Positions 9,145-24,767 are shown, counted from the stretch's first letter. The stretch: 35,433 nt of DNA from an uncultured Candidatus Saccharibacteria bacterium (GCA_964552275.1 CAZKFS010000001.1:1-35433), one strand, 5' to 3'. Notes: generated from the sequence alone by a model not told the origin. Numbers and translations: made by a program.

Positions 9145-9172
9145 TTGTTGCACTACATGAATCTGCTAGAAT
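9145..9172 (+). promoter_or_regulatory. promoter TTGTTG-16-(TGc)TAGAAT for the plus-strand cassette gene
   Basis: Extended -10 tgcTAGAAT at 9164-9172. AGGAGGAGG follows at 9179-9187. Confidence 0.45.
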
Positions 9173-9241
9173 CAAACTAGGAGGAGGTGTTGTCTGTCTA
9201 TTTGCGACAAAAACCCACCTGTTGGCCGGTTTTTTGAATCG

Positions 9242-9892
9242 TTGGCTCATGCGATACTGGGAGGTGAACTAACAAGAGATGAGTGGGGAGATATCTGCCT
9301 TTGGAGACAACACACCTCCATTGAGGTCAAAGGCTCTGGGAGTCAGTGTGGCCATGGTTTTCGGTTGAACACAAAACAAATAGGAGACTACCAGAGAATC
9401 CCCAACAAAGTGTGGTACATGTTTTTTGCTTACAGAAACAAAAGCATCAGAAACAAAAGGAGTGGAAAAAGGAGGACACAATTTTCGTACCACAACACGC
9501 CTGTGTCTATAAACCGCTACTTGGCCAGCTCCGTCGAATGGTGTTTGTTGGTAGATCTTTCCATTGTAACTGAGTGGGAGAAGACTATACCATACTCATA
9601 CAAATCAGTGGTTGGTAACTATGGAATGGAGACTGTTGATGTAAAGCGTAAGCACATGGAGCATTTCTCTAATGGAGGCCTGGCTACTGGCCTCTCGGAT
9701 TTAGGTCTAAACCCCCAAGAATTCGATGTATTGCATGGAGAGGTAGAAACCACCATCAAAGTCAAACCTGATCTTTCAAAAGAATACAGAGTTGTGTTGC
9801 CAATCACCACAATTCTCCCCTCTTGTGAGACAAACTCTCTCCGACGAAGAATGTCGCGGAGAGGATTCAAACTAAACAAGAGAGCCTTGTGA
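9242..9892 (+). CDS. hypothetical protein with a PD-(D/E)XK nuclease-like motif; opposite strand, G+C-rich insert
   Basis: WGDICLWRQHTSIEVKGSG....FRLNTKQ matches the D-x(10)-E-x-K ... Q signature of VRR-NUC/YraN-type nucleases. There is no in-frame ATG or GTG. The start is TTG 9242 (track) or CTG 9194, which sits 6 nt after AGGAGGAGG. The frame is open from 9170. Confidence 0.5.
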   Translation: MAHAILGGELTRDEWGDICLWRQHTSIEVKGSGSQCGHGFRLNTKQIGDYQRIPNKVWYMFFAYRNKSIRNKRSGKRRTQFSYHNTPVSINRYLASSVEWCLLVDLSIVTEWEKTIPYSYKSVVGNYGMETVDVKRKHMEHFSNGGLATGLSDLGLNPQEFDVLHGEVETTIKVKPDLSKEYRVVLPITTILPSCETNSLRRRMSRRGFKLNKRAL

Positions 9893-9935
9893 CCGTCGTT
9901 CGCTAGTAGCGGAAGGCGGTTTTCTTTTTATTTTT
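9892..9935 (+). terminator. intrinsic terminator of the plus-strand cassette gene
   Basis: accg..cgcta-g-tagcg..cggt composite stem followed by ttttctttttattttt. Confidence 0.6.
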
Positions 9936-9973
9936 AAGACTTAGAGAAATATTTGAGGGGTTAAACTCTTACA

Positions 9974-10032
9974 ATTTGGATGAAATCCGACGTTGAGAAT
10001 TTGAAAATATGAGTTCGCCAAATTTAGGAGTT
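9974..10032 (-). repeat. secY 3'-flank repeat element (two modules shared with the fusA 3' flank)
   Basis: atttggatgaaatccgacgttgagaa (9974-9999) resembles 27131-27157. gagttcgccaaatttaggagtt (10011-10032) resembles 639-660, 14721-14739 and 27223-27233. Confidence 0.7.
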
Positions 10033-11304
10033 TTAGTATTCTCGTATGGAGACCTGAGCGTCGATTTTCTTGATAAGATCAATTACCACAGAAACCACGA
10101 TAAGTAGAGCTGTACCACCAACAGATAGAGCTGTTATTCCAGTGATTCCTCTCATGATAAGAGGTAGAACTGCGATAAAACCTAGAAACATTGCTCCAAC
10201 TAGTGTAAGACGAGTCAGTATACGAGCAATATGATCTGAAGTTGATTTACCAGGACGAACACCGGGAATAAAAGCTCCGTTCTTCTGTAAGTTCGTTGAG
10301 ATCTGATCTGGATCAAACGTAACTGCTGTATAGAAGTAAGTGAATATAAACACCAACAAGAAGTAAGCTATCGCGTAGAACCAACTGTTAGCCAAAATAT
10401 CAAGAATAGTTCCTGAAACCGACTGAATCATTGTGTTACTAGAGTTCTGTAAAAACTGCAACAACATCTGAGGAAAAAGAAGTATAGATAGAGCAAATAT
10501 TATAGGAATAACTCCAGCCTGATTTATTCTAAGTGGTAGATATGTAGATGTTCCACCGTAAACACGGTTACCTCTAACCTGTTTTGCATATGTTACAGGA
10601 ATAGGTCTTTCTGCTTCGGTTATAACAACGACAGCAACAATAACCACAACTGCTACCACCGCAAAAACCAAATAAACAGGAATCTGTGAAGGGTCTAGTG
10701 AATACCAAAGTTGACCAAGTTGTGTTGGCAAAACAGCGACGATACCAGCAAATATAATAAGTGACAAACCATTTCCTATACCATATTCTGAAACAAGCTC
10801 ACCAATCCACATTAGGAGCACAGATCCAGCTGTGATTACCAATAGGTTGGTTATCAAGGCAAAAGGTGTAAGACCTGTAATAACTTGTTGTGTTTCAAGA
10901 ATTTTTATAAAACTGAAAGATTGTAGTAATGCTAGAGGAACAGATAGTATTCTTCCGTATTGAGAAAACTTTCTTCTTCCAGCCTCCCCTTCTTCTTGAT
11001 ACATCTCCTTTAGTCTAGAAGACATGATTGTAGAAAGTTGCATTATGATAGAAGCGGTAATATATGGACCAACTCCAAGCATAACAATAGATAGCTGTGC
11101 CAAACCTCCTCCAGAGAAGATGTTCAGCAGACCAAAAAACTCACTGCTTCCAAAAAATTGGGCAAGTTTATCATGATCCACTCCAGGGATAAATACATGA
11201 GAAAGAACGCGGAACAAAACTAGCGCAAAAAGTGTAAAAAATATCCGCTTTCTCAATACTTTATCTTGGAAAACGAGTTTGATTTTATTAAGAAATTCTT
11301 TCAT
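10033..11304 (-). CDS. secY: preprotein translocase subunit SecY
   Basis: 423-aa polytopic membrane protein in the canonical position after rplO. Confidence 0.95.
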   Translation of the reverse strand: MKEFLNKIKLVFQDKVLRKRIFFTLFALVLFRVLSHVFIPGVDHDKLAQFFGSSEFFGLLNIFSGGGLAQLSIVMLGVGPYITASIIMQLSTIMSSRLKEMYQEEGEAGRRKFSQYGRILSVPLALLQSFSFIKILETQQVITGLTPFALITNLLVITAGSVLLMWIGELVSEYGIGNGLSLIIFAGIVAVLPTQLGQLWYSLDPSQIPVYLVFAVVAVVVIVAVVVITEAERPIPVTYAKQVRGNRVYGGTSTYLPLRINQAGVIPIIFALSILLFPQMLLQFLQNSSNTMIQSVSGTILDILANSWFYAIAYFLLVFIFTYFYTAVTFDPDQISTNLQKNGAFIPGVRPGKSTSDHIARILTRLTLVGAMFLGFIAVLPLIMRGITGITALSVGGTALLIVVSVVIDLIKKIDAQVSIREY

Positions 11305-11310
11305 GGTATT

Positions 11311-11751
11311 TTATTTTACTGAACCTCCAGCCTTCTCTATTGCAACCTTGGCTGAACCTGAGACTTGGCAATTCTCAAAGCTAAGTTTCTTGTCGAGTTC
11401 TCCAGTGCCCAAAATCTTTACCTTTGGAAGTGAACCTTTGAACATTTTAACAACGTTGTGCTTTACCAAAGTCTCTGGTGATACAACATCTCCATTTTTA
11501 CAAAGTTTATTCAAAGTACCAATATTTACAACAACAGCTTTTGTTTGGATACTTGTGTTTATGTTTTTGCCTCTTCCTCGTAGTTTAGGAATTCTCTTTA
11601 TGAAATCTCTAATCTCTGGTCTCTTCTTGTGTCCAGCACGAGCGTTTTGACCTTTTGTTCCACGTCCAGCAGTCTTGCCACGTGTTCCTCCACGTCCTAC
11701 TTGTTTTGATTTCTTATTTGGATTAGCTCTTTTTAGGTTGTGTGTTTGCAT
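11311..11751 (-). CDS. rplO: 50S ribosomal protein L15
   Basis: GRGGTRGKTAGRGTKGQNARAG motif. It lies directly after rpsE with no L30 gene between them. Confidence 0.95.
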   Translation of the reverse strand: MQTHNLKRANPNKKSKQVGRGGTRGKTAGRGTKGQNARAGHKKRPEIRDFIKRIPKLRGRGKNINTSIQTKAVVVNIGTLNKLCKNGDVVSPETLVKHNVVKMFKGSLPKVKILGTGELDKKLSFENCQVSGSAKVAIEKAGGSVK

Positions 11752-11752
11752 G

Positions 11753-12334
11753 TTATTTTCTTAGTTTCAACTGACCCAAAGCCTTCACTGCAGCCTTTGC
11801 ATTGTTTACTTTGTTTTTACTTCGAGAAAAGATTTTTGAACTAACTTCGTTGATTCCTGCAAATTCTAAAACTGTTCGAACAGATGAACCTGCTAGAATA
11901 CCCTTACCAGGTGCTCTCATGATAAGAACTCTTGAACTTGAATACTTTGCATCAACTTCGTGAGGAATAGAACCAGTCTTTGTTAGGTTTACTTTGATCA
12001 TGTTTTTCTTGGCATCTCTAACTGCTTTATCGATAGCAACCGGTGTGTCACCTGCTTTACCAAGACCCACTCCAACACGACCCTTTCTATCACCTATAAC
12101 AATACCAACTGAAAAACTAAATCTTCTTCCTCCAGTTACCACACGAGTAACACGTCTGATACTAACTATTTTTTGATCGAACTCAGGTCTAACACGAGCC
12201 TCTCTTCTTGGTGCTGATTTTCTAGAATTCTTTTTGAATTCTCTTGGAGAATGCTGAGCAGGAGAATCTGAAACAGCAGGTGTTGCCACACCTCCCTCAA
12301 CCTTTATTTCTTCTGTAATTATTTCTGGTTCCAT
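11753..12334 (-). CDS. rpsE: 30S ribosomal protein S5 (N-terminal extension)
   Basis: RRVTRVVTGGRRFSFSVGIVIGDRKGRVGVGLGKA motif. Confidence 0.95.
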   Translation of the reverse strand: MEPEIITEEIKVEGGVATPAVSDSPAQHSPREFKKNSRKSAPRREARVRPEFDQKIVSIRRVTRVVTGGRRFSFSVGIVIGDRKGRVGVGLGKAGDTPVAIDKAVRDAKKNMIKVNLTKTGSIPHEVDAKYSSSRVLIMRAPGKGILAGSSVRTVLEFAGINEVSSKIFSRSKNKVNNAKAAVKALGQLKLRK

Positions 12335-12343
12335 AATATTTTA

Positions 12344-12694
12344 TTAAAATTGTAGACCTCCTTCTCTGGCAGAATCTGCTAGAGCCTTAACGCAACCTGT
12401 GTAAATAAACCCTCCTCGGTCAAAAACTACTTTACTTACTTTTAGAGCTTTGCCTTTCTCTGCTATGGTTTTACCAACCAATCCTGCTTTTTCCATCATG
12501 GTCTTGCCTTTAACATCTCTAGAGTGCACGCCGATTATAGTCACACCTGTATCGTCGTTAATAAGCTGTGCTGAAATATGTTTGTTTGATTTGTATACAG
12601 AGAGACGAGGTCTTTCATTAGTACCAGAAATCTGTGTGCGAATTTTCGCATGTCTTCTAGTTCTTTTTTGTATTTTTGCGTTTAATGATTTCAT
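12344..12694 (-). CDS. rplR: 50S ribosomal protein L18
   Basis: RLSVYKSNKHISAQLI ... DRGGFIYTGCVKALADSAREGGLQF. Confidence 0.95.
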   Translation of the reverse strand: MKSLNAKIQKRTRRHAKIRTQISGTNERPRLSVYKSNKHISAQLINDDTGVTIIGVHSRDVKGKTMMEKAGLVGKTIAEKGKALKVSKVVFDRGGFIYTGCVKALADSAREGGLQF

Positions 12695-12707
12695 CTTTTT
12701 TGAAATT

Positions 12708-13241
12708 TTATGCGGTCTTCTTACCTTGTTTTCTCTTTATAACCTCACCTTCGTATCTAATACCTTTTCCTTTGTATGGTTCTGGTTTCTTTAGAGATCT
12801 TACTTTGGCAACGAAATCTCCCACAACTTCTTTATCCATTCCTGTAACAGTAATAACGTTTTTCTCTGCAGTAACTTTCAAAATTTCTGGAATAGGAACA
12901 TTTACTGGATGAGAGAAACCTAGTGCAAGAACCAAGTTTGTTCCCTTTACTTCTGATTTGTAACCAATACCTTCGATAATTAGTTTTCTAACGAAAGGAG
13001 TAGTTGCACCAGCTGTCATGTTCATAATATGAGAAGCGTATGTTCCCCAAAGAGCTTTGTTTTCTAGAGTCTCTCTCTTTGGTGTAAGAGTGATTTCTCC
13101 TGGAGCAATATTGATAACAATATCCTCTTTAAACTTTTTTGAAAGAGTTCCTAGTGGTCCTTTCACAGTCAAAAGGCCGTTCAAAAGTGTTACTTCTGTC
13201 TTTGCTGGGATTGCTATTACTTTTTTACCGATTCGTGACAT
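12708..13241 (-). CDS. rplF: 50S ribosomal protein L6
   Basis: MSRIGKKVIAIP...KGPLGTL start and spc-operon position. Confidence 0.95.
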   Translation of the reverse strand: MSRIGKKVIAIPAKTEVTLLNGLLTVKGPLGTLSKKFKEDIVINIAPGEITLTPKRETLENKALWGTYASHIMNMTAGATTPFVRKLIIEGIGYKSEVKGTNLVLALGFSHPVNVPIPEILKVTAEKNVITVTGMDKEVVGDFVAKVRSLKKPEPYKGKGIRYEGEVIKRKQGKKTA

Positions 13242-13259
13242 TTTATTATTTAAAATTTA

Positions 13260-13649
13260 TTACCATATTTTGAACATAGCTTCTCCTCCCACTTTTGCCT
13301 CCTTTGCCATCTTGTCAGTCATAATACCCTTTGGAGTTGAAAGTATGAGAGAACCAACACCGTTCTTAACTTTTCTGATATCTTTTGTTTTGTTGTAAAT
13401 TCTTTTTGAAGTCTTTGAAACTCTCTCTACACCAGAAATACGAGATGCACCATCATCATAGATCAAACCAACCTCAATCCACTTTGCTATTTTCTTTCCT
13501 TTCTTTCCAAAAGATTTTATAAATCCTTCTTTCAAAAGAACATCTAGAATAGCGAGCTTTAGCTTTGAATGAGGAAAAACTACTGACTCTTTCTTTGAAT
13601 CAGAAGCATTCTTCATTCTTATAATCATGTCTGCGATTGGGTCTGTCAT
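13260..13649 (-). CDS. rpsH: 30S ribosomal protein S8
   Basis: MTDPIADMIIRMKNA start and spc-operon position. Confidence 0.95.
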   Translation of the reverse strand: MTDPIADMIIRMKNASDSKKESVVFPHSKLKLAILDVLLKEGFIKSFGKKGKKIAKWIEVGLIYDDGASRISGVERVSKTSKRIYNKTKDIRKVKNGVGSLILSTPKGIMTDKMAKEAKVGGEAMFKIW

Positions 13650-13724
13650 GTATTTTATATTATATCTGGGTAGTTTCTCTTCCCTAGTGGGTCAAGACTT
13701 GCCTAGTCAACTTGTCCAATCTAC

Positions 13725-13843
13725 CAGGATTTTTGTTCGAGTTCAAGGCTCGAGGTTTTGTTTCTGACCAAGCTGTACATTTAGTACTACGCGTGGAGGA
13801 AACAAAACCGAGAACGAAGAAATCGGACAAAAAGACGGTAGAT
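13725..13843 (-). repeat. ~120-nt intergenic element abutting the rpsN stop; homologous to 22088-22208
   Basis: Aligned by eye to the rpsJ 3' flank: shared aggatttttgtt, gaccaa, tgtaca..gtac, aaaaccgagaac and acaaaaagac blocks. Internal perfect 11-bp stem ggttttgtttc (13754-13764) / gaaacaaaacc (13799-13809). Confidence 0.75.
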
Positions 13844-14029
13844 TTACCAGGAGGACTTTTTCACGCCTGGAATTTTTCCCTCATTGGCAAGTTCACGGAA
13901 GCAGATTCTGCACAAAGCAAAGTCTCTCATAAATGCTCTTCCGCGTCCACATCTAAAGCATCGATTAGTAGCCCGAGTTGAGAATTTCGGTTTTTTTGCT
14001 GCTCTTGCTTTTACTGATGTTTTTGCCAT
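13844..14029 (-). CDS. rpsN: 30S ribosomal protein S14, zinc-binding type Z
   Basis: 61 aa with CFRCGR...CRIC two CxxC pairs. Position between L5 and S8. Confidence 0.95.
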
Positions 14030-14034
14030 AAATT

Positions 14035-14094
14035 AAGGAATGCAATGACTATAATTTATGAGCATGTCGGACTACTGTCCGACGGCCATTCCTT
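14035..14094 (-). promoter_or_regulatory. structured rpsN 5' leader hairpin ending 5 nt before the start codon
   Basis: Outer stem aaggaatg (14035-14042) / cattcctt (14087-14094). Inner stem gtcggac (14066-14072) / gtccgac (14077-14083). Confidence 0.45.
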
Positions 14095-14130
14095 ATAATC
14101 AAATAAAAAAGCTCTTTTGAAGCTGGGGTA

Positions 14131-14159
14131 ATACTAGCAATTATGGTTTAAAAAGTCAA
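14131..14159 (-). promoter_or_regulatory. promoter module copy 1: TTGACT-17-(TGc)TAGTAT, upstream of rpsN
   Basis: Minus strand ttgactttttaaaccataattgctagtat. It resembles the modules at 21450-21478 and 22620-22648 beyond the hexamers. Confidence 0.6.
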
Positions 14160-14172
14160 CGTATACGACGAT

Positions 14173-14199
14173 GCCCGGGATCCTCTCGGTATCCCGGGC
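14173..14199 (-). other. perfect 9-bp GC-rich inverted repeat 3' of the orphan ORF (possible terminator, no U tract)
   Basis: gcccgggat - 9 nt - atcccgggc, starting 14 nt after the ORF stop codon. Confidence 0.5.
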
Positions 14200-14212
14200 A
14201 CAGGTCAGGTGG

Positions 14213-14575
14213 TCAGCACGTACCCCAGGTGAAGACTGTGGCAGACTCCAGATCGGAGTAGGTCCTCTGAATCGAGAACCTCTTTCCGAGCCTCACGACC
14301 CTCAAGACCACCGATGAATTACTATCGATGCTCTGAAGGAGGAAATCGGCGAGTTTCACCTGGGCGGCGAGCGAAAACTCGCCGAAGGTGTCATGAATAT
14401 CCTTCCTGGTTGTCTGGAAGGTGACATAGTTCTCACCCACCCTGATGTAGGTGTGGTAGAGTCTAGACCTACTTGTGAGATCCAGACCATTCAACTCCTC
14501 ATGGACAATGTAAAGCGGGTTCCTATGGTCCTCATGTCGAACCACAGGAAGAACGACTTCTCTTACTTTTTCCAT
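14213..14575 (-). CDS. orphan hypothetical protein (120 aa) in a G+C-rich insert between rplE and rpsN
   Basis: ATG at 14573-14575 is preceded by AGGTGG with a 5-nt spacer, so the track's longer start at 14638 is less likely. I recognise no family motif. I counted 33/60 G+C in 14221-14280. Confidence 0.6.
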   Translation of the reverse strand: MEKVREVVLPVVRHEDHRNPLYIVHEELNGLDLTSRSRLYHTYIRVGENYVTFQTTRKDIHDTFGEFSLAAQVKLADFLLQSIDSNSSVVLRVVRLGKRFSIQRTYSDLESATVFTWGTC

Positions 14576-14652
14576 TTTGACCACCTGTTTTGCAGAACTT
14601 ATGGCACGTCGCAGCCATTTGTCTGCGAAAAAGAACATGCGACGTTTCTATA

Positions 14653-14681
14653 ATTATACCATATATTACATAAAAATACAA
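14653..14681 (-). promoter_or_regulatory. promoter TTGTAT-17-(TGg)TATAAT for the orphan ORF
   Basis: Minus strand ttgtatttttatgtaatatatggtataat, immediately downstream of the rplE terminator. Confidence 0.55.
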
Positions 14682-14682
14682 G

Positions 14683-14717
14683 ATAATAAAAACCCTTGTT
14701 TAAAGGGTTTTTATTAT
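14683..14717. terminator. intrinsic terminator after rplE
   Basis: ataataaaaaccctt - loop - aagggtttttattat. Confidence 0.7.
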
Positions 14718-14743
14718 CTTTTCGCCAAACTTGGAAGTTGTAG

Positions 14744-15346
14744 CTATTTCTTTGGAGCTCGAGACCCGCCTTTTTTGTTTGCATCCGCCTTAGGCTTTGC
14801 CTCTTTTGTTTCTACTTTTTTAAATGGGAATCCTAGATGTGTTAGGAAAGCTTTTGTCTCCTTTGGATCTTTTATGTTAGTTACAACTGCAACTGAAAGT
14901 CCGAAAACATCTTTCAAGTCCTCGTCAGATGATTCTGGGAAGATTGTGTTTTCTTTGATACCTAGAGTATAGTTCCCCATCTCATCGATACCGCTCGCAG
15001 AAATACCACGGAAGTCTTTTGTTCTAGGAAGAGCTATGTTAACTAGTCTGTCTAGGAAATCATACATTCTCTGTCCTCTAAGAGTTATTTGCATTCCAAC
15101 TGGATCTCCTTCTCGAACTTTGAAAGCTGCGATAGAAATCTTTGCACCTTTTCTAGCTGGCTTTTGTCCTGTGATTTTTGAAAGTCTGTCTGCAACAAGC
15201 TCTATCTTCTTTTTGTCTTTGATTGATCCGATACCAGAAGCTATCACCACTTTCATTATCTTTGGTGCTTGCATCGCGTTTTTGTAGCCAAACTCACCTT
15301 TTAGAGCTTCGAATGACTTTGCTGTTTTTGATTTAATAGTTTCCAT
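14744..15346 (-). CDS. rplE: 50S ribosomal protein L5 (Lys-rich C-terminal tail)
   Basis: KGEFGYKNAMQAPKIMKVVIASGIG motif and spc-operon position. Confidence 0.95.
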   Translation of the reverse strand: METIKSKTAKSFEALKGEFGYKNAMQAPKIMKVVIASGIGSIKDKKKIELVADRLSKITGQKPARKGAKISIAAFKVREGDPVGMQITLRGQRMYDFLDRLVNIALPRTKDFRGISASGIDEMGNYTLGIKENTIFPESSDEDLKDVFGLSVAVVTNIKDPKETKAFLTHLGFPFKKVETKEAKPKADANKKGGSRAPKK

Positions 15347-15370
15347 AACTTTCGTAGCTTACGCCTAATA

Positions 15371-15619: not shown

Positions 15620-15636
15620 AATATTGAAATTAAGTT

Positions 15637-16014: not shown

Positions 16015-16028
16015 GGTAGTTTGTTAAA

Positions 16029-16292: not shown

Positions 16293-16303
16293 GTTTTTTA
16301 AAA

Positions 16304-16486: not shown

Positions 16487-16492
16487 GGCTTT

Positions 16493-16918: not shown

Positions 16919-16932
16919 GGTAGTTAATTAAA

Positions 16933-17589
16933 TTATTTTGAGAATATTTCTCCTTTGTATATCCAAACTTTTATTCCCAATCCTCCGTATGGAAGTCTTG
17001 CCTCAAATTTTGCAAAATCAACATCTGCTCGGAAAGTCTGAAGAGGGATTCTTCCTCTCTTTATTTTCTCTTGGCGAGCCATTGAAGCACCTCCAAGTCT
17101 TCCTGACAACTCTATCTTTACACCCAAAACATCTCTGTTTGCCATAACCTTCTCAACCATTTGCTTTGTTACACGTCTGAAAGGAAGTCTTTTTTCCAAA
17201 CCATCTGCAACCATTTGAGCAACTATCATAGCGTTTGATTCTGGAGATTTAACTTCTTTTATATCAACTTTTACTTCACCACCAGCTGAAAGTTTCTTCT
17301 TTGATAGAAAAGCCAAGATATCATTCTTTAACTTCACTGCGCCATCACCAGATCGTCCAATGATCATACCTGGTCTTGATGTCTCAATAATAATTCGAAG
17401 AACCTTCTCTCCTCTTTCCATCTCTATGTTACTTATGTATAGGCCTCGAAGTTTCTTCTCTAGGTGTTCTCTCAAAAGAACGTCGCTCTTTAGAAACTCT
17501 TTGTATTTACCTTTTACTCCAAACCATCGAGACTTCCAGTCTCTGATAATTCCTAGTCTATGTGAATATGGGTGTACTGTATGAGTCAT
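16933..17589 (-). CDS. rpsC: 30S ribosomal protein S3
   Basis: HPYSHRLGIIRDWKSRWF and a KH domain. S10-operon position. Confidence 0.95.
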   Translation of the reverse strand: MTHTVHPYSHRLGIIRDWKSRWFGVKGKYKEFLKSDVLLREHLEKKLRGLYISNIEMERGEKVLRIIIETSRPGMIIGRSGDGAVKLKNDILAFLSKKKLSAGGEVKVDIKEVKSPESNAMIVAQMVADGLEKRLPFRRVTKQMVEKVMANRDVLGVKIELSGRLGGASMARQEKIKRGRIPLQTFRADVDFAKFEARLPYGGLGIKVWIYKGEIFSK

Positions 17590-17590
17590 A

Positions 17591-18022
17591 TTATTTTGTG
17601 ATTTTCTTAGCTCTTGGTTTTTTTACAGATTTAGCTTCTGCAACTTCTGTAGCTTTAACCTCTTTTACAATCTTTACTTTCTTCTTTGAATCAGCCTCAC
17701 CAAGCTCAACAAAAATAGCTGATGTTCTCTTTCGTATTGGATGAGCAGAACCACGAGCAGCTGGCATTCGTCTGTACATTATTTTTCCACCATCTACTTT
17801 TATAGTTTTAACTATAAGGTTTTCTGTTGGAATATCTTGAGCCTTTGCGTTTGCAAGAGCTGACATAATAAGAGTCTTGATAGGAAGAGAAGCTTTCTTT
17901 GCAACGAAATCTAGGTTTACCAAAACCTCAGAAACTTTCTTTCCTCTCACAGCATTTGCAACCAATCGCATTTTGCGAGGAGCTTGTCTGAAATTTGATA
18001 ATGTTGCTTTTGCTGTTGCCAT
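17591..18022 (-). CDS. rplV: 50S ribosomal protein L22 (Lys-rich C-terminal extension)
   Basis: FRQAPRKMRLVANAVRGKKVSEVLVNLDF. Confidence 0.95.
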   Translation of the reverse strand: MATAKATLSNFRQAPRKMRLVANAVRGKKVSEVLVNLDFVAKKASLPIKTLIMSALANAKAQDIPTENLIVKTIKVDGGKIMYRRMPAARGSAHPIRKRTSAIFVELGEADSKKKVKIVKEVKATEVAEAKSVKKPRAKKITK

Positions 18023-18031
18023 ATAAATATA

Positions 18032-18379
18032 TTATTTCTTCTTAGCGTCAGTTGTAGCGGCCTTTGCAGATTGAGCAGCAGCTATCTCACCCTCTTTCTT
18101 CTTCTGCTCTAGCTCCTTCTGCATTTTACCTCCGTGTTTTATGAACTTTTTAGTAGGAGAAAACTCGCCTAGTCTGTGACCCACCATATCTTCATTTACG
18201 GAAACTTCAATATGAACCTTGCCGTTATGAACACCAAAAATAAAACCTACCATCTCAGGAGAGATCACGCATGCACGAGACCAAGTCTTAATAACCCCAG
18301 TTTCACTGGATTTTTTACCCTCAATTTTCTTGAGTAGTCTCTCGTCTACGTATGGACCTTTTTTAGATGATCTTGTCAT
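18032..18379 (-). CDS. rpsS: 30S ribosomal protein S19 (C-terminal extension)
   Basis: [29 protein letters not shown]. Confidence 0.95.
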
Positions 18380-18475
18380 TTTAATTTGTTGAAAACAAAA
18401 ACCACATTGTTAGTGGTACTGACTAGCTAATACCTCAAACAGAATGTATAAGACGTGTAGTCTTACGTGGCGTCT

Positions 18476-18504
18476 ATACTATACAAAATGCCTCAGAATG
18501 TCAA
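18476..18504 (-). promoter_or_regulatory. promoter TTGACA-17-TAGTAT upstream of rpsS
   Basis: Minus strand ttgacattctgaggcattttgtatagtat. It lies directly downstream of the UUCG-loop terminator of the RNA candidate. Confidence 0.55.
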
Positions 18505-18520
18505 CACATTTAATCAATGT

Positions 18521-18748
18521 AAGGAAAAGGCCTCCCGAAGGAGGCCGTGTTGGAGGGAGAGGGCCTAGAGCACCCCTGCGCCATGGGTGGTAGTCGCCCA
18601 AGGTAACTAGTATTTACCGGATTTTCGCAGTGCCCCAATCGACACAAGGACCATAGTTTTTCACTCTTTCATCAAACGAGTTGCAACTCGCTGAATCCCC
18701 AAGCGTTGCGGTCTGGTCCAAGGATGTTGCCACCACCTCTCCCCCAAA
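18521..18748 (-). ncRNA. unclassified G+C-rich structured RNA candidate (~225 nt) between rplB and rpsS
   Basis: No ORF longer than about 24 codons on either strand. Closing helix gggagagg (18555-18562) pairs with cctctccc (18736-18743). Second helix GGUGG/CCACC. Internal hairpins include CGAGU-UGCA-ACUCG. The minus-strand 3' end is GGCCUCC-UUCG-GGAGGCC plus UUUUCCUU (18521-18546). I counted 41/60 G+C in 18541-18600. Class unknown. Confidence 0.5.
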
Positions 18749-18785
18749 ATAAGACTATACTTTTTAATACATAAGTCAATTAAAC

Positions 18786-18816
18786 AAAAACACCGTTCGA
18801 GTTCGAACGGTGTTTT
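18786..18816. terminator. strong bidirectional terminator directly after the rplB stop
   Basis: aaaaacaccgttcga-gt-tcgaacggtgttttt, a perfect 11-bp stem with flanking A and T runs. Confidence 0.8.
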
Positions 18817-18821
18817 TGTTT

Positions 18822-19664
18822 TTACTTCTTTTTACCTACCTTCCTTCTACTTACGATGAATTTATTTGAATATTTCTTTGGAGTTCTAGATTTCTGTCCC
18901 TTACCTGTTGGTTTACCGTACACAGAGATAGCTCTCTTGCGTCCTCGGCCTTGTCTACCCTCTCCACCTCCGTATGGGTGATCAACTGGGTTTTGAGCAG
19001 TACCTCGAACTGTAGGGCGAATACCCAACCATCGTGATCGTCCAGCTTTTCCTAGGTTTACTAGTCTGTTTTCATTGTTTGAAACTTCTCCAACAGATGC
19101 CCATGCAGTGTCTTTTACTTTTCTAACTTCTGTTGAAGGAAGTTTGATATCCACGTAACCAGCGTCCTTTGCAATAACTTCTACGAAGTTTCCAGCTGAA
19201 CGAGCTAGTTTTGCTCCACCTTGTGGCTTAACCTCTACGTTGTAAACAAAAGTTCCAATAGTTATATTTTTAAGAGGTAATCTGTTTCCAGATTTTATTT
19301 CTGCTGTTTCAGATGTGATGAGTGTATCTCCAACTCTGACAGATGATGGTAGAAGAACATATCTCTTTGCACCGTCTCTGTACTGAGCAAGACCAATAAA
19401 TCCTGATCGGTTTGGATCGTATTCTACTGTTTTTATAGTATAAGGAACGTTTATTTTGTCGTATTTGAAATCAATCTCTCTAAACAGTCTTTTTGCTCCA
19501 CCTCCTTTGTGTCTAGTAGTTATTTTACCATGGTGGTTTCGGCCCATCTTTCTTCTAAAACCGTGAGTTAGTGACTTCACTGGTTCTGTAGCTGTAACAA
19601 AGTCACCAAAAGAGATGGTTGTCATTCCTCTACGACTTTTTGATGTTGGTTTATATCTCTTCAT
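18822..19664 (-). CDS. rplB: 50S ribosomal protein L2
   Basis: 280 aa with GGGAKRLFREIDF and HPYGGGEGR motifs. Confidence 0.95.
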   Translation of the reverse strand: MKRYKPTSKSRRGMTTISFGDFVTATEPVKSLTHGFRRKMGRNHHGKITTRHKGGGAKRLFREIDFKYDKINVPYTIKTVEYDPNRSGFIGLAQYRDGAKRYVLLPSSVRVGDTLITSETAEIKSGNRLPLKNITIGTFVYNVEVKPQGGAKLARSAGNFVEVIAKDAGYVDIKLPSTEVRKVKDTAWASVGEVSNNENRLVNLGKAGRSRWLGIRPTVRGTAQNPVDHPYGGGEGRQGRGRKRAISVYGKPTGKGQKSRTPKKYSNKFIVSRRKVGKKK

Positions 19665-19674
19665 GGTAATTTTA

Positions 19675-19956
19675 TTATATGTTCTCTATTTGAGTCCCCT
19701 TTTTAAGATATATGTAGGCTTTCTTATATCCTGATTTTTTACCGACTTTTCCTCTAACAAAAACTTTCTTTGCATGAATAGTAACTGTACTTATCTTGAT
19801 TGGGTTGATTTTGTATTTCTCGATAAAAGCTTTCTCGATTAGAACTTTTGTTGATTTTGGATCAACTTCAAATACGTAAACTGAAGACTCTGCAGTACGA
19901 GTTGCCTTCTCTGTGATGTGTGGACTTATTAAAACTGAGTTAAGATCTTTTTTCAT
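19675..19956 (-). CDS. rplW: 50S ribosomal protein L23
   Basis: ISPHITEKATRTAE.. and position between L4 and L2. Confidence 0.9.
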   Translation of the reverse strand: MKKDLNSVLISPHITEKATRTAESSVYVFEVDPKSTKVLIEKAFIEKYKINPIKISTVTIHAKKVFVRGKVGKKSGYKKAYIYLKKGTQIENI

Positions 19957-19980
19957 AGCTGTCGTAGCTTGCGCCTAATG

Positions 19981-20685
19981 TTAATTTGCCTTCGGCGCTT
20001 CCACCTTCTTATTTGATAATTTTTCTCCTATTTTTTGACTGATCTGAGGAATACCTTTCTCTGGATTAGAAATAACTACATACTTGTATTTCATTAGGTG
20101 AACTGGACTGATGTTTCTTATTTCATCAACGATCAAGTTGTTGAAGTTAGCAAAACTTTTTTCTGTATTAGCATCTTTTGAAGACAAAGCAACATATGCT
20201 GAGTTTCTTTTCTTTGAAAGAAGATCTTTGAATCCTGAAACTTTTGAAAGTGAAGATAGAACCTCTCTAGCGCCTTTTGTTTTGATAGCTTTCAAAGACA
20301 TATCATCCACAAACAGAACATGACCATTCTTGAATTTATCAGAAAGAATAGTGTAAAGAGCTTTTGCCTTCATTTTCTTATTTATTTTTCTATCAAAATT
20401 CTTGTCACTTCTAGGACCATGAGTAACACCTCCGTGTCTCCATATAGGTGAACGTGTAGAACCGTGTCGAGCACGACCAGTTCCCTTTTGTTGCCAAGGT
20501 TTCTTACCTCCTCCACTTACCTCACCTCTGTTTTTTGTGTGAGCAACGTTTGGACGAGCAATTGATTCCATAGAAACAACAACTTGGTGAACCAAGTCAG
20601 CATTCCACTTCAAACCAAAAACTGACTCTGGCAAAGCCACTTTTCCTGATTCCTTTCCTTTTTGATTGTATACTACAGCTTCCAT
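19981..20685 (-). CDS. rplD: 50S ribosomal protein L4
   Basis: SGGGKKPWQQKGTGRARHGSTRSPIWRHGG motif. Confidence 0.95.
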   Translation of the reverse strand: MEAVVYNQKGKESGKVALPESVFGLKWNADLVHQVVVSMESIARPNVAHTKNRGEVSGGGKKPWQQKGTGRARHGSTRSPIWRHGGVTHGPRSDKNFDRKINKKMKAKALYTILSDKFKNGHVLFVDDMSLKAIKTKGAREVLSSLSKVSGFKDLLSKKRNSAYVALSSKDANTEKSFANFNNLIVDEIRNISPVHLMKYKYVVISNPEKGIPQISQKIGEKLSNKKVEAPKAN

Positions 20686-20695
20686 ATTTTTATTA

Positions 20696-21307
20696 TTATC
20701 CGTTTAGTTCAACTAGAGTTCCTCGTCTTCCAGATATAGCACCTCGTACAAAAATCTCTCCAGTTTCTGGTTTAACAGAAACAACAGTTAGACCTTTAGT
20801 TGTGATCCTATCACCACCCATTCTTCCGGCCATTCTCTTGCCTTTTGCAACACGACCTCCATCTCTACCTCCTCCACCAATAGAACCTGGCTCACGCTCT
20901 GAGTGCTTCTGTCCGTGTGAACGAGGTCCACCTTTGAATCCATGTCTTTTGACAGTACCTTGAAAGCCCTTACCTTTTGATAGTGAAGATGCAGTTATCA
21001 TATCTCCAGCTGAAAATGTAGAAAGATCAATACTATCTCCAACTTTAAATGCAGGTTCGCCCTCTGTTCTAAATTCTCTGAGGTACATGTAGTTACCACC
21101 CTTCATCTGACCTTTCTGCGCCTTGTTAATATTTTTCTCTGCTCTCTCTCCAAAACCAACTTGAACAGCATTGTAACCATCTGTAGAAACAGTTTTGATA
21201 GCAGTAACAACCATAGGTCCAGCTTTTATAGCTGTGACAGGATGAACAACCCCTTTGTCGTCAAAGATTTGGGTCATATTTAGTTTTGTTCCTAAAATAA
21301 ATTTCAT
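20696..21307 (-). CDS. rplC: 50S ribosomal protein L3
   Basis: I chose the start at MKFILGTKLNMTQIFD (ATG 21305-21307). The 23 residues upstream in the track are probably leader read-through. FKGGPRSHGQ motif. Confidence 0.9.
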   Translation of the reverse strand: MKFILGTKLNMTQIFDDKGVVHPVTAIKAGPMVVTAIKTVSTDGYNAVQVGFGERAEKNINKAQKGQMKGGNYMYLREFRTEGEPAFKVGDSIDLSTFSAGDMITASSLSKGKGFQGTVKRHGFKGGPRSHGQKHSEREPGSIGGGGRDGGRVAKGKRMAGRMGGDRITTKGLTVVSVKPETGEIFVRGAISGRRGTLVELNG

Positions 21308-21391
21308 ATTATTTTGATTTCTTGGAAACATTTTTCGGACAGTAATGAGAAAAGTGTTTTTCCCAACATTGCCCATCGCTAGTCTCCTGAA

Positions 21392-21425
21392 TCCGCCTCT
21401 TCGGCGGACCCGCCGACGAGGCGGG
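21392..21425 (-). promoter_or_regulatory. two tandem GC-rich hairpins in the rplC 5' leader
   Basis: tccgcc-tcttc-ggcgga (21392-21408) and cccgcc-gacga-ggcggg (21409-21425), each a 6-bp stem with a 5-nt loop. Confidence 0.45.
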
Positions 21426-21449
21426 AAAGTCCATTTGAAAGACTTGACT

Positions 21450-21478
21450 ACATTAGCAGATATCGGTTTTTAATTCAA
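21450..21478 (-). promoter_or_regulatory. promoter module copy 2: TTGAAT-17-(TGc)TAATGT, upstream of rplC
   Basis: Minus strand ttgaattaaaaaccgatatctgctaatgt, similar to copies 1 and 3. Confidence 0.55.
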
Positions 21479-21545
21479 GTCCTTTTAAAATAAATAAAAA
21501 AAACCGTGAATCAGGCAGAAGCCAACCCATAGGTTTTGTGTGGTC

Positions 21546-21579
21546 CCGCGGGCTGGTGGGGTGCTCCCACCGCCCGCGG
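21546..21579 (-). other. 14-bp GC-rich hairpin 3' of the secreted-protein ORF (terminator-like, no U tract)
   Basis: ccgcgggc(t)ggtggg - gtgct - cccaccgcccgcgg. Confidence 0.5.
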
Positions 21580-21610
21580 TCATATGTGTTCTCGGTGGGG
21601 ACTTGAAGGA

Positions 21611-21970
21611 TCAGCCCACCGCGAACGAGCCCGTCGTGTTCGAGGTGCCAATCGCACCAACCCAGGCCGGCGCCGAGGAGTGTTGTCTGTCTCCCAGGCC
21701 GACGGTGTTGTTGGGGCGTATCGACATGTCGGCGATGGTGTCGACTTCCGGAAGGGCGTCCTCGTAGGTGTTGATCGAGTGTTGAACAGTAAATCCTGGC
21801 ATGACGACTTCCATCAAGGAGGGTTCCACCTGGACATCCTCCTCGATCATCGTCACGCTGCCGACCGCGATGGTGACGATGTTGTGCTTGTTGTCATCGA
21901 CCTTCTGGACCGGTGACGACGGAAGGAGCAGCGCGAACACCGCCCCGAGTAGAACCAAGAGCTTCCTCAT
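21611..21970 (-). CDS. small secreted hypothetical protein (119 aa) in a high-G+C insert between rpsJ and rplC
   Basis: AGGAGG lies 4 nt upstream of the ATG. Signal peptide MRKLLVLLGAVFALLLPSS. Third codon positions are visibly G/C-rich. I counted 43/60 G+C in 21541-21600 (3' hairpin region just outside the ORF) and 41/60 in 21661-21720 (inside the ORF). Confidence 0.65.
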   Translation of the reverse strand: MRKLLVLLGAVFALLLPSSPVQKVDDNKHNIVTIAVGSVTMIEEDVQVEPSLMEVVMPGFTVQHSINTYEDALPEVDTIADMSIRPNNTVGLGDRQHSSAPAWVGAIGTSNTTGSFAVG

Positions 21971-22051
21971 GAGTCCTCCTAATAGTTAGAACGAATGGTC
22001 ACCAGACCACCCTATTTCCTATGGTATAACAACAAATATTTAAGTGCAAAC

Positions 22052-22077
22052 AAAAAACCACCTCTCGGTGGTTTTTT
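22052..22077. terminator. terminator aaaaaaccacc-tctc-ggtggtttttt
   Basis: Same hairpin family as 23022-23047 and 34410-35. It lies after the rpsJ 3' element. Confidence 0.75.
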
Positions 22078-22087
22078 GTTTATTTCT

Positions 22088-22208
22088 GAGGATTTTTGTT
22101 GAAGTTCGAAGTTCGCAGTTTTTATGTACGACCAAAATGTACAAAAGTACATTGCGGGAGTAGATAAAACCGAGAACAAAGAAATTCTACAAAAAGACCG
22201 GAAATAAC
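22088..22208 (-). repeat. ~120-nt intergenic element abutting the rpsJ stop; homologous to 13725-13843
   Basis: See the 13725-13843 feature. Inner perfect hairpin aatgtac-aaaa-gtacatt (22136-22153). Outer stem gtttttat / ataaaac at the position equivalent to the 11-bp stem of the other copy. Confidence 0.75.
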
Positions 22209-22598
22209 TTAGATGATTTTTACGTCGATATTAACCCCTGACGGAAGTGACATGTTTGTCAGAGCTTCCATTATCTTTGGTGTAGGGTTTAGGATATCGA
22301 TTACTCTTTTGTGAGTTCTCATTTCAAACTGCTCACGAGCATTTTTGAAAACGAAAGCAGATCGGTTTACTGTATATTTCTTTATTTCTGTAGGAAGAGG
22401 AATAGGTCCTTCTACTTTTGCATCATATCGAAGAGCTGTATCTATAATCTGCTTTACAGACAAATCAAGAATCTTGTATTCATAAGCACGAACGCGAATT
22501 CTGAGCTTTGAAATAACATCTGATTTAGCTGCCTTTGGAGCAGCTTTTGCTGTAGTCTTTTTTACAGATGCCTTTTTAGTTGTTTCCTTTGCAGTCAT
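22209..22598 (-). CDS. rpsJ: 30S ribosomal protein S10 (about 30-aa Lys/Ala-rich N-terminal extension)
   Basis: LRIRVRAYEYKILDLSVKQIIDTA core and position ahead of rplC. Confidence 0.95.
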   Translation of the reverse strand: MTAKETTKKASVKKTTAKAAPKAAKSDVISKLRIRVRAYEYKILDLSVKQIIDTALRYDAKVEGPIPLPTEIKKYTVNRSAFVFKNAREQFEMRTHKRVIDILNPTPKIMEALTNMSLPSGVNIDVKII

Positions 22599-22619
22599 GT
22601 CAATTTAGTTGTACCCCAG

Positions 22620-22648
22620 ATACTAGCAGATAATGGTTTTTTGTTCAA
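22620..22648 (-). promoter_or_regulatory. promoter module copy 3: TTGAAC-17-(TGc)TAGTAT, upstream of rpsJ
   Basis: Minus strand ttgaacaaaaaaccattatctgctagtat. Confidence 0.6.
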
Positions 22649-22678
22649 GGGGTGTGAACATTTTAATTCAATCTTATC

Positions 22679-22706
22679 TTGACAAAATGCAAACAACTGT
22701 TATAAT
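22679..22706 (+). promoter_or_regulatory. near-consensus promoter TTGACA-16-(TGt)TATAAT
   Basis: ttgacaaaatgcaaacaactgttataat. GGGAG follows at 22714-22718 and the ATG at 22726. Confidence 0.7.
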
Positions 22707-22725
22707 GTAATTAGGGAGTTGAAAA

Positions 22726-22926
22726 ATGTTAATCTGGATTTTGAGCACTGGGCTAACAGTACTACTGACCATATTCGGCACCATTTTCGTCGGGTCGGTA
22801 GTCGTCTGTACCGCATTGATGGGTGGAGACAAGAGAAATTCTGTGTACTCTTACTCACTTCAATCTCTGCTCGTTTCTTTGCTAATACTAATAGGACTCC
22901 TCGCACTCAAGGCAAAATTCGCTTGA
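22726..22926 (+). CDS. 66-aa two-TM hydrophobic peptide, antisense to the operon direction
   Basis: MLIWILSTGLTVLLTIFGTIFVGSVVVCTAL-MGGDKRNSVYSYSLQ-SLLVSLLILIGLLALKAKFA. It is the only one of three overlapping ORFs that has an SD plus an ATG. Confidence 0.6.
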   Translation: MLIWILSTGLTVLLTIFGTIFVGSVVVCTALMGGDKRNSVYSYSLQSLLVSLLILIGLLALKAKFA

Positions 22927-22978
22927 TGGTGGGTGGCCCTAAAAAGGATGTCCGCTAGAATTAACGAGTTCATCACGA

Positions 22979-23004
22979 GGGCTGCTCCGGCAGTCCTTTC
23001 TTTT
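22979..23004 (+). terminator. terminator of the small peptide transcript
   Basis: gggctgc-tccg-gcagtcc stem followed by tttctttt. Confidence 0.5.
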
Positions 23005-23021
23005 ATGTAAAATATCATTTC

Positions 23022-23047
23022 AAAAAACCACCTTTCGGTGGTTTTTT
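23022..23047. terminator. terminator aaaaaaccacc-tttc-ggtggtttttt after tuf
   Basis: Perfect 5-bp GC core extended by A/T runs. Confidence 0.75.
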
Positions 23048-24762: not shown

Positions 24763-24767
24763 AATAT

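Follow-up and report, generated by a model that had tools for sequence, protein, structure and literature searches.

How a highly conserved bacterial gene order can come to hold short, foreign-looking pieces of DNA at several of its gene boundaries is the question raised by the 35,433-nucleotide (nt) stretch of DNA analyzed here (CAZKFS010000001.1:1-35433; "the window" denotes this whole stretch). The window contains a str-S10-spc array of ribosomal protein (r-protein) genes, a gene order that is among the most conserved in bacteria and that serves as a phylogeny backbone for uncultured phyla. The genes lie on the minus strand in the order rpsL, rpsG, fusA, tuf, rpsJ, rplC-D-W-B, rpsS...rplE, rpsN...secY, adk, map, ndk, and an L30 gene was not found in the array. 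Five of its junctions carry additional DNA, and these five inserts, or cassettes, are the subject of this study. The window sequence occurs in contig JAKFZD010000055.1 of the metagenome-assembled genome (MAG) GCA_021733565.1. The host is a Parcubacteria, Paceibacteria/Zambryskibacteria-like MAG; the RplB of the window shares 97% identity with its counterpart in a "Parcubacteria group" MAG, and its other neighbors carry the labels Zambryskibacteria, Paceibacterota or Minisyncoccia.

The window was compared with 80 related genome loci (L001-L080) in tblastn searches and measurements of junction length, and with 165 loci totaling 2.2 Mb in nhmmer searches. Loci L001-L024 constitute the close clade (24 loci), and the nearest relative, L001, shares ~85% nt identity in genes. 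The expanded junctions measure 967 nt (adk/secY, insert 1), 714 nt (rpsN/rplE, insert 2), 442 nt (rpsS/rplB, insert 3), 832 nt (rplC/rpsJ, insert 4) and 492 nt (rpsJ/tuf, insert 5), with the adk start set at 9065 on the basis of the end of L001 homology and the aligned N-terminus. Ordinary in-operon junctions in the 80 related loci have median lengths of about -40 to 25 nt. DNA without a counterpart in L001 extends over ~9068-9962, 14160-14744, 18507-18740, 21480-22047 and 22719-23013 (234-895 nt), and the r-protein genes at all five junctions are unbroken. A preliminary description of this locus had reported extra DNA at five junctions with no r-protein gene disrupted, and both the lengths and the L001 alignment bear this out. 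The exact insertion breakpoints are not definable, because the best relative found in a scan of metagenomes for closer sequences had only 92% RpsC identity on a 1-kb contig. Beyond the five, the array is also interrupted at rpsN/rpsH (194 nt), a sixth expanded junction that is filled by a hairpin element of ~124 nt, and at fusA/rpsG, which has a gene for a 913-amino acid (aa) ATPase.

In base composition the inserts deviate from the native background, to different degrees. The G+C content of inserts 1 to 5 is 0.422, 0.472, 0.526, 0.551 and 0.444, respectively, compared to 0.379 for native sequence. Inserts 2, 3 and 4 are more G+C-rich than any native window of their length (z = 3.6, 3.9 and 6.7), and 4-5% of native windows score at least as high as inserts 1 and 5 (z ~2); tetranucleotide distances rank the inserts as G+C does. 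For the cassette open reading frames (ORFs) of inserts 1, 2, 4 and 5, G+C at third codon positions (GC3) is 0.48, 0.62-0.64, 0.80 and 0.49, compared to 0.21-0.40 in native genes, among which o99 (0.48) is the single exception. In the ORFs of inserts 2 and 4, GC3 far exceeds G+C at second positions (GC2), a pattern indicative of real coding sequence from a G+C-richer background. The seven hand G+C counts of 60-nt lines in the preliminary description were all exact, and the claim of foreign composition built on them stands firmly for inserts 2-4 by G+C, GC3 and tetranucleotides, with inserts 1 and 5 only mildly deviant in bulk G+C.

The four ORF-bearing cassettes are present in sequence data assembled independently of the window. 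Single-run Logan assemblies carry the cassette ORFs in ribosomal context for insert 1 (five runs), insert 2 (six listed, plus a seventh), insert 4 (five) and insert 5 (one). In total, twelve distinct runs from SRR10388232-248 carry cassettes. Two junctions are covered by several of the contigs, and the five contigs that were compared with the window, spanning inserts 4 and 5, are 100% identical to it. Because independent assemblies carry the ORF-bearing cassettes in the same context, chimeric assembly is excluded for these cassettes.

Comparison of translation signals revealed a further difference between the cassettes and the array. The energy of the duplex with the anti-Shine-Dalgarno (anti-SD) sequence is about -6.6 to -10.2 kcal/mol at cassette starts and mostly above -2 at native starts, which are preceded by A/T-rich sequence. 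The contrast originally drawn, of strong SD sequences at cassette ORFs and none at native starts, holds with one correction: rplC has AGGAG at -13 to -9 (-7.4). The rpsJ start scores -6.0. In L001-L024, SD-like motifs precede 3% of 387 native genes versus 34% of junction ORFs, and they reach 50% among junction ORFs with GC3 above 0.55. All 80 related loci are SD-poor, including the G+C-rich ones, with native SD motifs at 1-7% across G+C classes. The anti-SD motif has been detected in just 48% of Parcubacteria 16S rRNA sequences, with one subgroup lacking it (PMC9297842), and the scarcity of SD sites at native genes fits that subgroup. G+C-rich members of the family were considered as donors and were rejected as the source of the SD signal, as their native genes are equally SD-poor.

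Alignment of the operon with related genomes showed that the window's cassettes are absent from them and that other, unrelated cargo lies at four of the junctions. The four cassette proteins had no tblastn match in the 80 related loci, and the DNA of inserts 2-5 had no nhmmer match in the 165 loci; at four of the five sites the cargo of L001 differs from that of the window. When an expanded junction was defined as a gap of at least 300 nt and counted in L001-L024, such gaps were found at tuf/rpsJ in 14 of 22 loci, at rpsJ/rplC in 16 of 22, at rplB/rpsS in 17 of 18 and at rplE/rpsN in 11 of 17. They also occur at rpsG/fusA (3/3) and fusA/tuf (14/14), at secY/adk in one of eight loci, and at the remaining 19 junctions in no locus. 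The junction content in relatives varies from genome to genome and is often G+C-rich. It is material of the usual accessory or mobile kind, including toxin-antitoxin pairs (HicA/HicB and YafQ/RelE), an IS30-type transposase, a type IV pilin-like protein, a DksA/TraR-like protein, a CheY-like receiver, and a reverse transcriptase (325/330 aa, Pfam RVT_1) with a target gene. The last of these lies at rplE/rpsN in L011 (14816-17432) and at rplB/rpsS in L016 (11950-14737), and we read it as a diversity-generating retroelement because the C-terminal segment of the target recurs downstream as an Asn-rich near-copy. Several small cargo families sit at different junctions in different genomes. In a more distant clade a conserved block of three to four genes occupies rplB/rpsS, which suggests that some insertions are old and fixed. 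These data show that the junctions are clade-wide hot spots of gene gain and turnover, four of them commonly and secY/adk rarely.

Junctions that have remained empty indicate what the cassettes occupy. In L005, L009 and L013 the empty sites consist of a stop codon, a bidirectional terminator, ~20 nt, and the promoter of the next unit. The array was thus already segmented, and the cassettes occupy the spacer between terminator and promoter, as had been proposed for the window. Within positions 9000-24400 we counted 23 terminator-like sites, compared to 11.1 +/- 3.2 in shuffled sequences; promoter-like sites numbered 33, compared to 29.2 +/- 5.7, a total not above chance. The scanned terminator-like sites include bidirectional terminators after tuf, rplB and rplE; that of rpsJ is not in the scan list and was recognized from a perfect inverted repeat of 15 bp. 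Upstream of rpsJ, rplC, rpsS and rpsN are conserved native promoters of the TTGAAy/TTGACw-17-TAGTAT type.

The cassettes themselves all end in a terminator or hairpin: inserts 3 and 5 have canonical terminators, and inserts 1, 2 and 4 have stable hairpins (z = -1.8, -4.1 and -3.8). Their promoters are less clearly their own. Only that of insert 5 matches the consensus at 12/12 positions, and the promoter-like sites of inserts 3 and 5 are located in flanking sequence common to L001, so that they may be part of the insertion site itself instead of the cassette. L001 also has a promoter-like element similar to that of insert 2 ahead of its own, different cassette at rplE/rpsN. The original view of the cassettes as self-contained therefore goes too far: a predicted terminator or hairpin lies at each 3' end, and the promoters are consensus matches, at least two of them in the L001-shared flank. 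Some cassettes may be driven by promoters resident at the insertion point.

Taken as a whole, these data are probably best explained if the five inserts are moron-like islets of horizontally transferred DNA located in the spacers between terminators and promoters. The array is natively divided into several transcription units, each boundary consisting of a bidirectional terminator, a spacer of ~20 nt and a promoter. The spacers would be permissive landing pads, since they alone accept DNA without breaking a gene or a transcription unit. Outside DNA, with higher G+C and led by SD sites, appears to have been fixed in them repeatedly, as judged by its composition and its absence from relatives, and a fixed unit would comprise an SD, then an ORF or RNA, then a hairpin terminator. 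Once inserted, cassettes would be insulated by terminators and driven by their own or by resident site promoters. They would act like phage morons, as accessory cargo with rapid turnover, and the five would share no single pathway. The repeated horizontal acquisition into terminator sites that was first suggested for this locus is thus supported by the absence of the cassettes from relatives, by the G+C, GC3 and SD contrast, by the other cargo found at the same junctions, and by the terminator-spacer-promoter layout of the empty sites. The accompanying suggestion, that the donors were higher-G+C hosts of an episymbiont, is unsupported, as the proteins of inserts 2 and 4 are orphans and the relatives of insert 1 are only Patescibacteria-like.

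Relatives retain possible traces of how such DNA enters. In L012 (1916-3063), copies of the last 42 nt of rpsJ that are 93% identical bracket a G+C-rich cassette of 1.1 kb, and the inner copy is followed by the usual terminator of the clade. In L010 (5477-6681), a perfect 43-nt repeat, comprising the terminator and 9 nt, flanks 1162 nt with toxin-antitoxin genes. In L001 (6313-6853), two tandem cassettes end in the same terminator and a 41-nt repeat flanks 500 nt. These direct-repeat scars point to homology-anchored recombination, which appears to be the likeliest route of entry. Based on them, we hypothesize that entry or replacement is anchored in conserved flanking r-protein genes or in repeated terminators, and that the other end of a segment from a related donor is joined by illegitimate or short-homology recombination after DNA uptake; a circular intermediate integrating through short homology would be an alternative route to the same scars. 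Patescibacteria transfers are mostly within the phylum, and those of translation and transcription genes chiefly involve r-protein genes and tuf (PMC12455944). Homology-anchored entry agrees with that observation and with the general model of horizontal-transfer hot spots between core genes (PMC5635113).

Several points weigh against this explanation. The bulk G+C of inserts 1 and 5 deviates only mildly. No flanking direct repeats or scars were found around the window's five cassettes, for which a search for target-site duplications returned only weak resemblances between A-runs and terminator arms, so that the mechanism is extrapolated from relatives. A donor was not found for inserts 2-5, and two complete orphan proteins sit oddly with recent transfer from well-sampled, high-G+C groups.

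The spacers could have a more active part than that of landing pads. They may constitute a functional cassette-capture platform, with terminator hairpins (perhaps also the 124-nt hairpins) as recombination sites and resident promoters as expression slots, fed by a Patescibacteria-wide pool of mobile genes that keep their own G+C and SD. We regard this as rather unlikely, and its mobile pool would fit the insert 1 family, which looks foreign in all five homologue loci described below. Unlikely too, by our estimate, is a dedicated, site-specific capture system, with the terminator or 124-nt hairpins as attC/attI-like sites at which an enzyme encoded elsewhere would insert and exchange cassettes in defined expression slots. 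Near-identical terminator copies bracket cassettes in L001 and L010, one terminator sequence family recurs at several boundaries, the same cargo families appear at different junctions, and in some cases variable cargo is read from a promoter that is part of the conserved site, all as such a system would predict. However, Pfam scans across the 35-kb window, covering the four cassette ORFs and most larger non-ribosomal ORFs, found no integrase, recombinase or transposase, and no attC-like core pair (RYYYAAC...GTTRRRY) lies within or within 80 nt of any insert. Cassettes occur in both orientations, several with a promoter of their own, the terminators of relatives differ in sequence, the scar in L012 duplicates coding sequence and not a hairpin, and the window's cassettes lack flanking repeats.

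The comparison with integrons leads to a similar result. Integron cassettes are likewise small single-gene units with a terminal hairpin-forming repeat, at a defined site beside a resident promoter. They are mostly promoterless and in one orientation under a common Pc promoter, whereas here two of five cassettes (inserts 1 and 5) are antisense to the operon, as had been noted from the start, no intI was found in the window scans, attC cores are missing, and several separate sites have separate promoter-like elements. Nor does the locus resemble an integrase-borne genomic island, as the window has no tRNA or transfer-messenger RNA (tmRNA) target, integrase or flanking repeats; a tRNA and tmRNA search of the window returned no genes, and a classical island target is thus missing.

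Inserts that are native and fast-evolving, whether structured regulatory RNAs (r-protein leaders, 3' untranslated regions) or de novo genes, are also improbable in our judgment. The idea draws on the G+C richness of structured RNAs in A+T-rich genomes, on insert 3, which lacks a convincing ORF and has a closing helix and a terminator, and on tuf/rpsJ being the expected place of an S10-type leader; in addition, two of the proteins are orphans and a conserved hairpin RNA element does exist at these boundaries. It is difficult to reconcile with the excess of GC3 over GC2 in inserts 2 and 4, a coding signature that suggests a G+C-rich background, with properly spaced SD sites in an SD-poor genome, and with homologues of insert 1 at unrelated loci elsewhere. 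Inserts 2-5 share no sequence with close relatives, although the adjacent true leaders and promoters are conserved, and two cassettes run antisense to the operon.

Insert 1 raises a possibility of its own. It is read from the plus strand, antisense to the array, and begins with a promoter-like TTGTTG-16 nt-(TGc)TAGAAT at 9145-9172, read by eye at the level of the consensus and not in the promoter-scan list. A Shine-Dalgarno sequence, AGGAGGAGG (9179-9187), is located 6 nt ahead of a CTG start, from which a PD-(D/E)xK-like ORF of 232 aa extends over 9194-9892 (GC3 0.48), followed by a terminator hairpin and U-run at 9891-9935 (-16.9 kcal/mol, z = -1.8). The start had been placed at TTG 9242; the in-frame CTG at 9194 replaces it, as the 16-residue extension that this gives aligns with the N-termini of nine homologues. 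With these nine, at 42-59% identity, the protein belongs to a small family, in which the motif D33...E44-V-K46 is invariant across 10 sequences. The AlphaFold2 model of the protein is confident (predicted local distance difference test score, pLDDT, 83.8). In a Foldseek search of the PDB it had no significant match (E at least 0.15, template modeling score about 0.27), the best of the non-significant matches being EcoRV, SPARDA complex chains, DpnI, PvuII and HincII. No Pfam, PADLOC or PDB sequence match was found, and a PDB profile search of the family was empty. Membership in the PD-(D/E)xK nuclease superfamily is plausible from the motif and the model, and stays unproven because no PDB match is significant.

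Insert 1 is the only traceable cassette; all of its homologues come from other Patescibacteria-like contigs, where they occupy unrelated sites. In each of the five homologue loci examined (L098, L100, L183, L185 and L187) the GC3 of the insert-1-type gene is clearly above that of its neighbors, and in four of the five it has an SD that the neighbors lack. The homologue lies directly beside VanY in two of these five other genomes, and VanY is ~4 kb away in a third. Other SD-led, high-GC3 genes were observed scattered in the same five loci, which may point to a gene pool of distinct composition in the SD-poor genomes of Patescibacteria.

It is conceivable that insert 1 is a selfish, free-standing gene of the homing-endonuclease type that would have copied itself into the secY/adk spacer by cutting the empty allele, the other cassettes being unrelated hitch-hikers. 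The invariant D...E-x-K motif and the restriction endonucleases among the weak top fold matches are in keeping with this, as is the occurrence of the gene alone at unrelated intergenic sites, compositionally foreign in all five homologue loci, with its own SD (4/5) and, in the two loci checked for it, its own terminator. We nevertheless consider it very unlikely, since there is no significant fold or sequence match, the adjacency to VanY suggests a conserved cellular role, and it would explain only one insert of five. The source being metagenome-assembled and the inserts short and compositionally distinct, high-G+C reads might have been joined chimerically into the contig or wrongly binned, and this is extremely improbable given that single-run assemblies repeat the ORF-bearing cassettes in ribosomal context, with complete identity in the five contigs compared, and that conserved terminators and promoters abut each insert cleanly.

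Returning to moron-like islets as the preferred explanation, phage morons (Hendrix and colleagues) are the nearest parallel to the way the cassettes work. As summarized in PMC2920897, morons are additional units that lie between conserved genes, carry signals of their own and deviate in G+C, and different units are found at the same hot spot. The cassettes resemble them as extra DNA between adjacent genes of a conserved co-linear array, present in some relatives and not in others; in G+C unlike that of the neighbors (strongly so for inserts 2-4, mildly for 1 and 5); in the different units at the same hot spot in relatives; and in cargo that includes toxin-antitoxin modules and putative nucleases. 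Transcription signals of the moron type are predicted for the cassettes, in that all five have terminators or hairpins and the promoters are consensus matches, two of them in the L001-shared flank. The cassettes are not true morons because they are not in a phage or prophage genome: they lie in a cellular chromosome, in the r-protein supercluster, with no phage genes nearby, no PHROG match for the cassette proteins, no match in phage records for inserts 2 and 4, and none in IMG/VR viral contigs for inserts 1, 2 and 4.

The junctions also qualify as horizontal-transfer hot spots between core genes, in that their accessory content differs across related genomes and most intervals hold none. Oliveira, Touchon and Rocha (2017, PMC5635113) describe such hot spots as a general pattern. 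There as here, few core-flanked intervals hold diverse accessory genes with rapid turnover, and homologous recombination in the flanks is a further feature that the locus would share. The intervals differ here in being located inside canonical S10/spc operons (rpsJ/rplC, rplB/rpsS, rplE/rpsN), the units are of 0.2-0.9 kb, and the host is a streamlined Patescibacteria genome. Insertions in ribosomal clusters are known in Gammaproteobacteria and Bacilli (PMC8046335; PMC6735719). The examples from PMC8046335 considered here are mostly native metabolic genes between operons (tusDCB, bfd-bfr, ilv-leu), with nrdHEF inside the rpoBC operon, and they show no sign of distant transfer. As described there, a few genes between ribosomal operons represent a first step of cluster break-up, and to that extent the cases are alike; here, in contrast, the insertions are inside the classical operons, at many junctions, with foreign-looking cargo and fast turnover.

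What is new here is that the sites are inside the classical S10/spc operons with many junctions occupied at once, and that the cargo differs between close relatives in a streamlined phylum and contrasts in SD with the host. Full-text literature searches returned no description of such insertions in Parcubacteria. In this one Patescibacteria family, array boundaries that turn over foreign cargo offer an easily scored system for gene gain in streamlined, possibly symbiotic bacteria, as any genome can be checked for cargo at four fixed junctions between universal genes. The SD-led, G+C-rich cassettes among SD-free native genes provide a built-in marker of foreign origin, and the SD contrast raises the question of whether SD-led cassette genes are translated in such hosts. 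There is also a warning in these data: at the ribosomal loci of these organisms, marker-gene pipelines and island finders that rely on composition can give misleading results.

The remaining cassettes were examined individually. Insert 2 is bounded by the native rpsN promoter (TTGACT-17-TAGTAT, 14131-14159, minus strand, conserved in L001) and by the bidirectional rplE terminator (14680-14720), which has an 18-bp perfect stem. It encodes an orphan protein of 120 aa in operon sense (14213-14575, minus strand; GC3 0.64), with AGGTGG at 14581-14586, 5 nt before the ATG, and the ORF was called as 120 aa in independent assemblies too. Upstream is a promoter-like TTGTAT-17-(TGg)TATAAT (14653-14681, minus strand), recognized by eye and not in the scan list; at the matching place L001 has TTGACT-17-TATAAA. 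A G+C-rich, terminator-like hairpin without an immediate U-run follows at 14166-14207 (minus strand; -27.9 kcal/mol, z = -4.1). Among 5.8 billion proteins the insert 2 protein matched only itself, and a HMMER search of 1.84 billion representatives returned itself and one spurious partial repeat match.

Insert 3 (18525-18747, minus strand) is a candidate G+C-rich transcript of ~220 nt with a closing helix of 18550-18562 with 18736-18748 and a canonical terminator at 18529-18546. Its predicted fold has an energy of -85.5 kcal/mol, with z = -2.1 on the minus strand versus -0.9 on the plus strand. No convincing ORF, no Rfam match and no homologue in relatives was found for it, and it is probably a small RNA. 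An ORF of 40 aa in insert 3 was considered as a peptide gene and rejected, as it has no codon-position G+C signal. A promoter-like TTGACT-14-TATAGT of poor spacing (18754-18779, minus strand) reads into insert 3 from flank common to L001. The surrounding native elements are the rpsS promoter (TTGACA-17-TAGTAT, 18476-18504, minus strand), which is conserved in relatives and bounds the insert, and the rplB terminator (18782-18821), bidirectional with a 19-bp perfect stem. Rfam at gathering thresholds matched no family anywhere in the window, and at E-value level in three junction regions it gave no real family for insert 3 or for the hairpin elements.

Insert 4 is bounded by the native rplC promoter (TTGAAT-17-TAATGT, 21450-21478, minus strand, conserved in L001). 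Its ORF (21611-21970, minus strand) encodes an orphan protein of 119 aa with a signal-peptide-like N-terminus (MRKLLVLLGAVFALLL), and AGGAGG at 21975-21980 gives an SD duplex of -10.2. G+C at its first, second and third codon positions is 0.58, 0.41 and 0.80. Two 3' hairpins, the second followed by U8, are located at 21500-21579 (minus strand; -44.6 kcal/mol, z = -3.8). The protein matched only itself in the protein database, and its single-sequence AlphaFold2 model is unreliable (pLDDT 43).

Insert 5 lies on the plus strand, antisense to the operon, and is entered by a perfect promoter, TTGACA-16-TATAAT with TG (22679-22706, 12/12), which is shared with L001 and divergent from the native rpsJ promoter (TTGAAC-17-TAGTAT, 22620-22648, minus strand), a motif also present at the empty sites of L005 and L013. 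GGGAG at 22714-22718 precedes an ORF of 66 aa with two hydrophobic segments (22726-22926), called as a gene in an independent assembly (L082), and the insert has its own terminator at 22977-22998 (plus strand). The bidirectional tuf terminator (23018-23051) bounds it and belongs to the family of the rpsJ terminator, AAAAAACCACC-TCTC-GGTGGTTTTTT (22048-22081), a repeated family with a further copy at 34407-34435.

Database searches gave no match in Pfam, PHROGs or PADLOC for the cassette proteins and ORFs in alternative frames, in plasmid records for the DNA of insert 4 (the only insert searched there), in phage records for the DNA of insert 4 and the protein of insert 2, or in IMG/VR viral contigs for the proteins of inserts 1, 2 and 4. 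That the cassettes share no obvious common pathway, as the preliminary description had it, is borne out, and nothing links the five functionally.

Repeated elements at the gene ends of the array were a further feature of the locus. The long-hairpin element of ~124 nt is located directly after the rpsN stop (13722-13845, minus strand; fold z = -7.2), and a second copy is located directly after the rpsJ stop (22085-22208, minus strand; z = -6.7). Its predicted 44-pair structure is 80% paired, compared to 67% in shuffles and 32-46% when slid. Further copies were observed in L003, L006, L010, L012, L016, L017, L019, L022, L049, L109 and L115. Most forward-strand copies start 0-15 nt past a stop codon, following rpsN, rpsJ, tuf, rplB, rpsG, adk or rplF depending on the genome, usually genes that end a unit; two inverted copies lie just upstream of rplC. 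Across 17 aligned copies, 24 of the 44 pairs are changed on both sides, with G-U pairs on the sense strand. The hairpin is long and imperfect, conserves an apical motif (CTCCACGCGCAGTAC...GTACAGCTTGGTC) and is absent from Rfam. It could represent a 3' untranslated region stabilizer, a processing site or a mobile hairpin like a miniature inverted-repeat transposable element.

A 3' flank repeat (family D17) lies directly past the secY stop (9963-10032, minus strand). This repeat (9963-10037) recurs at 619-665, after a PG_binding_1 domain gene (659-1873), and one of its type follows tuf in L001 (reverse-complement coordinates 14529-14648). The 3' flank and terminator of fusA (27135-27232) resemble the rplB 3' flank of L002, L004 and L012, which adds another case of terminator-region sequence common to different transcription-unit ends. 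At the rpsG terminator (32332-32495), the final 15 nt of rpsG recur in inverted form and extend the stem to a perfect 27 bp, and the terminator arm has a perfect 43-nt direct repeat 98 nt away, just upstream of the 913-aa gene; the arrangement looks like a recent template-switch or recombination scar.

The 913-aa gene itself (29546-32287, minus strand), a larger interruption of the str region between rpsG and fusA, encodes a protein with a TraG/TraD C-terminal domain and weaker matches to HerA-type and coupling-protein ATPases (DUF8128; PADLOC mad8-like). Its GC3 is native-like (0.30), and a homologue was present in just one of the 80 related loci, L079. Between fusA and tuf, genes for proteins of 99 aa and 756 aa (24463-27038, minus strand) had no Pfam match, and the 99-aa gene has a GC3 of 0.48, unusually high for a native gene. 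As both are kept at fusA/tuf across the close clade, they are clade-specific residents and not cassettes. Outside the array, two large, secreted-looking proteins (1900-4975, minus strand) have dockerin and fibronectin type III domains, one of them also a cohesin domain, and adjoin a protein with PG_binding_1 repeats. Based on their domains, we read the proteins at 1900-4975 as putative cellulosome-type adhesion hardware in a Parcubacterium.

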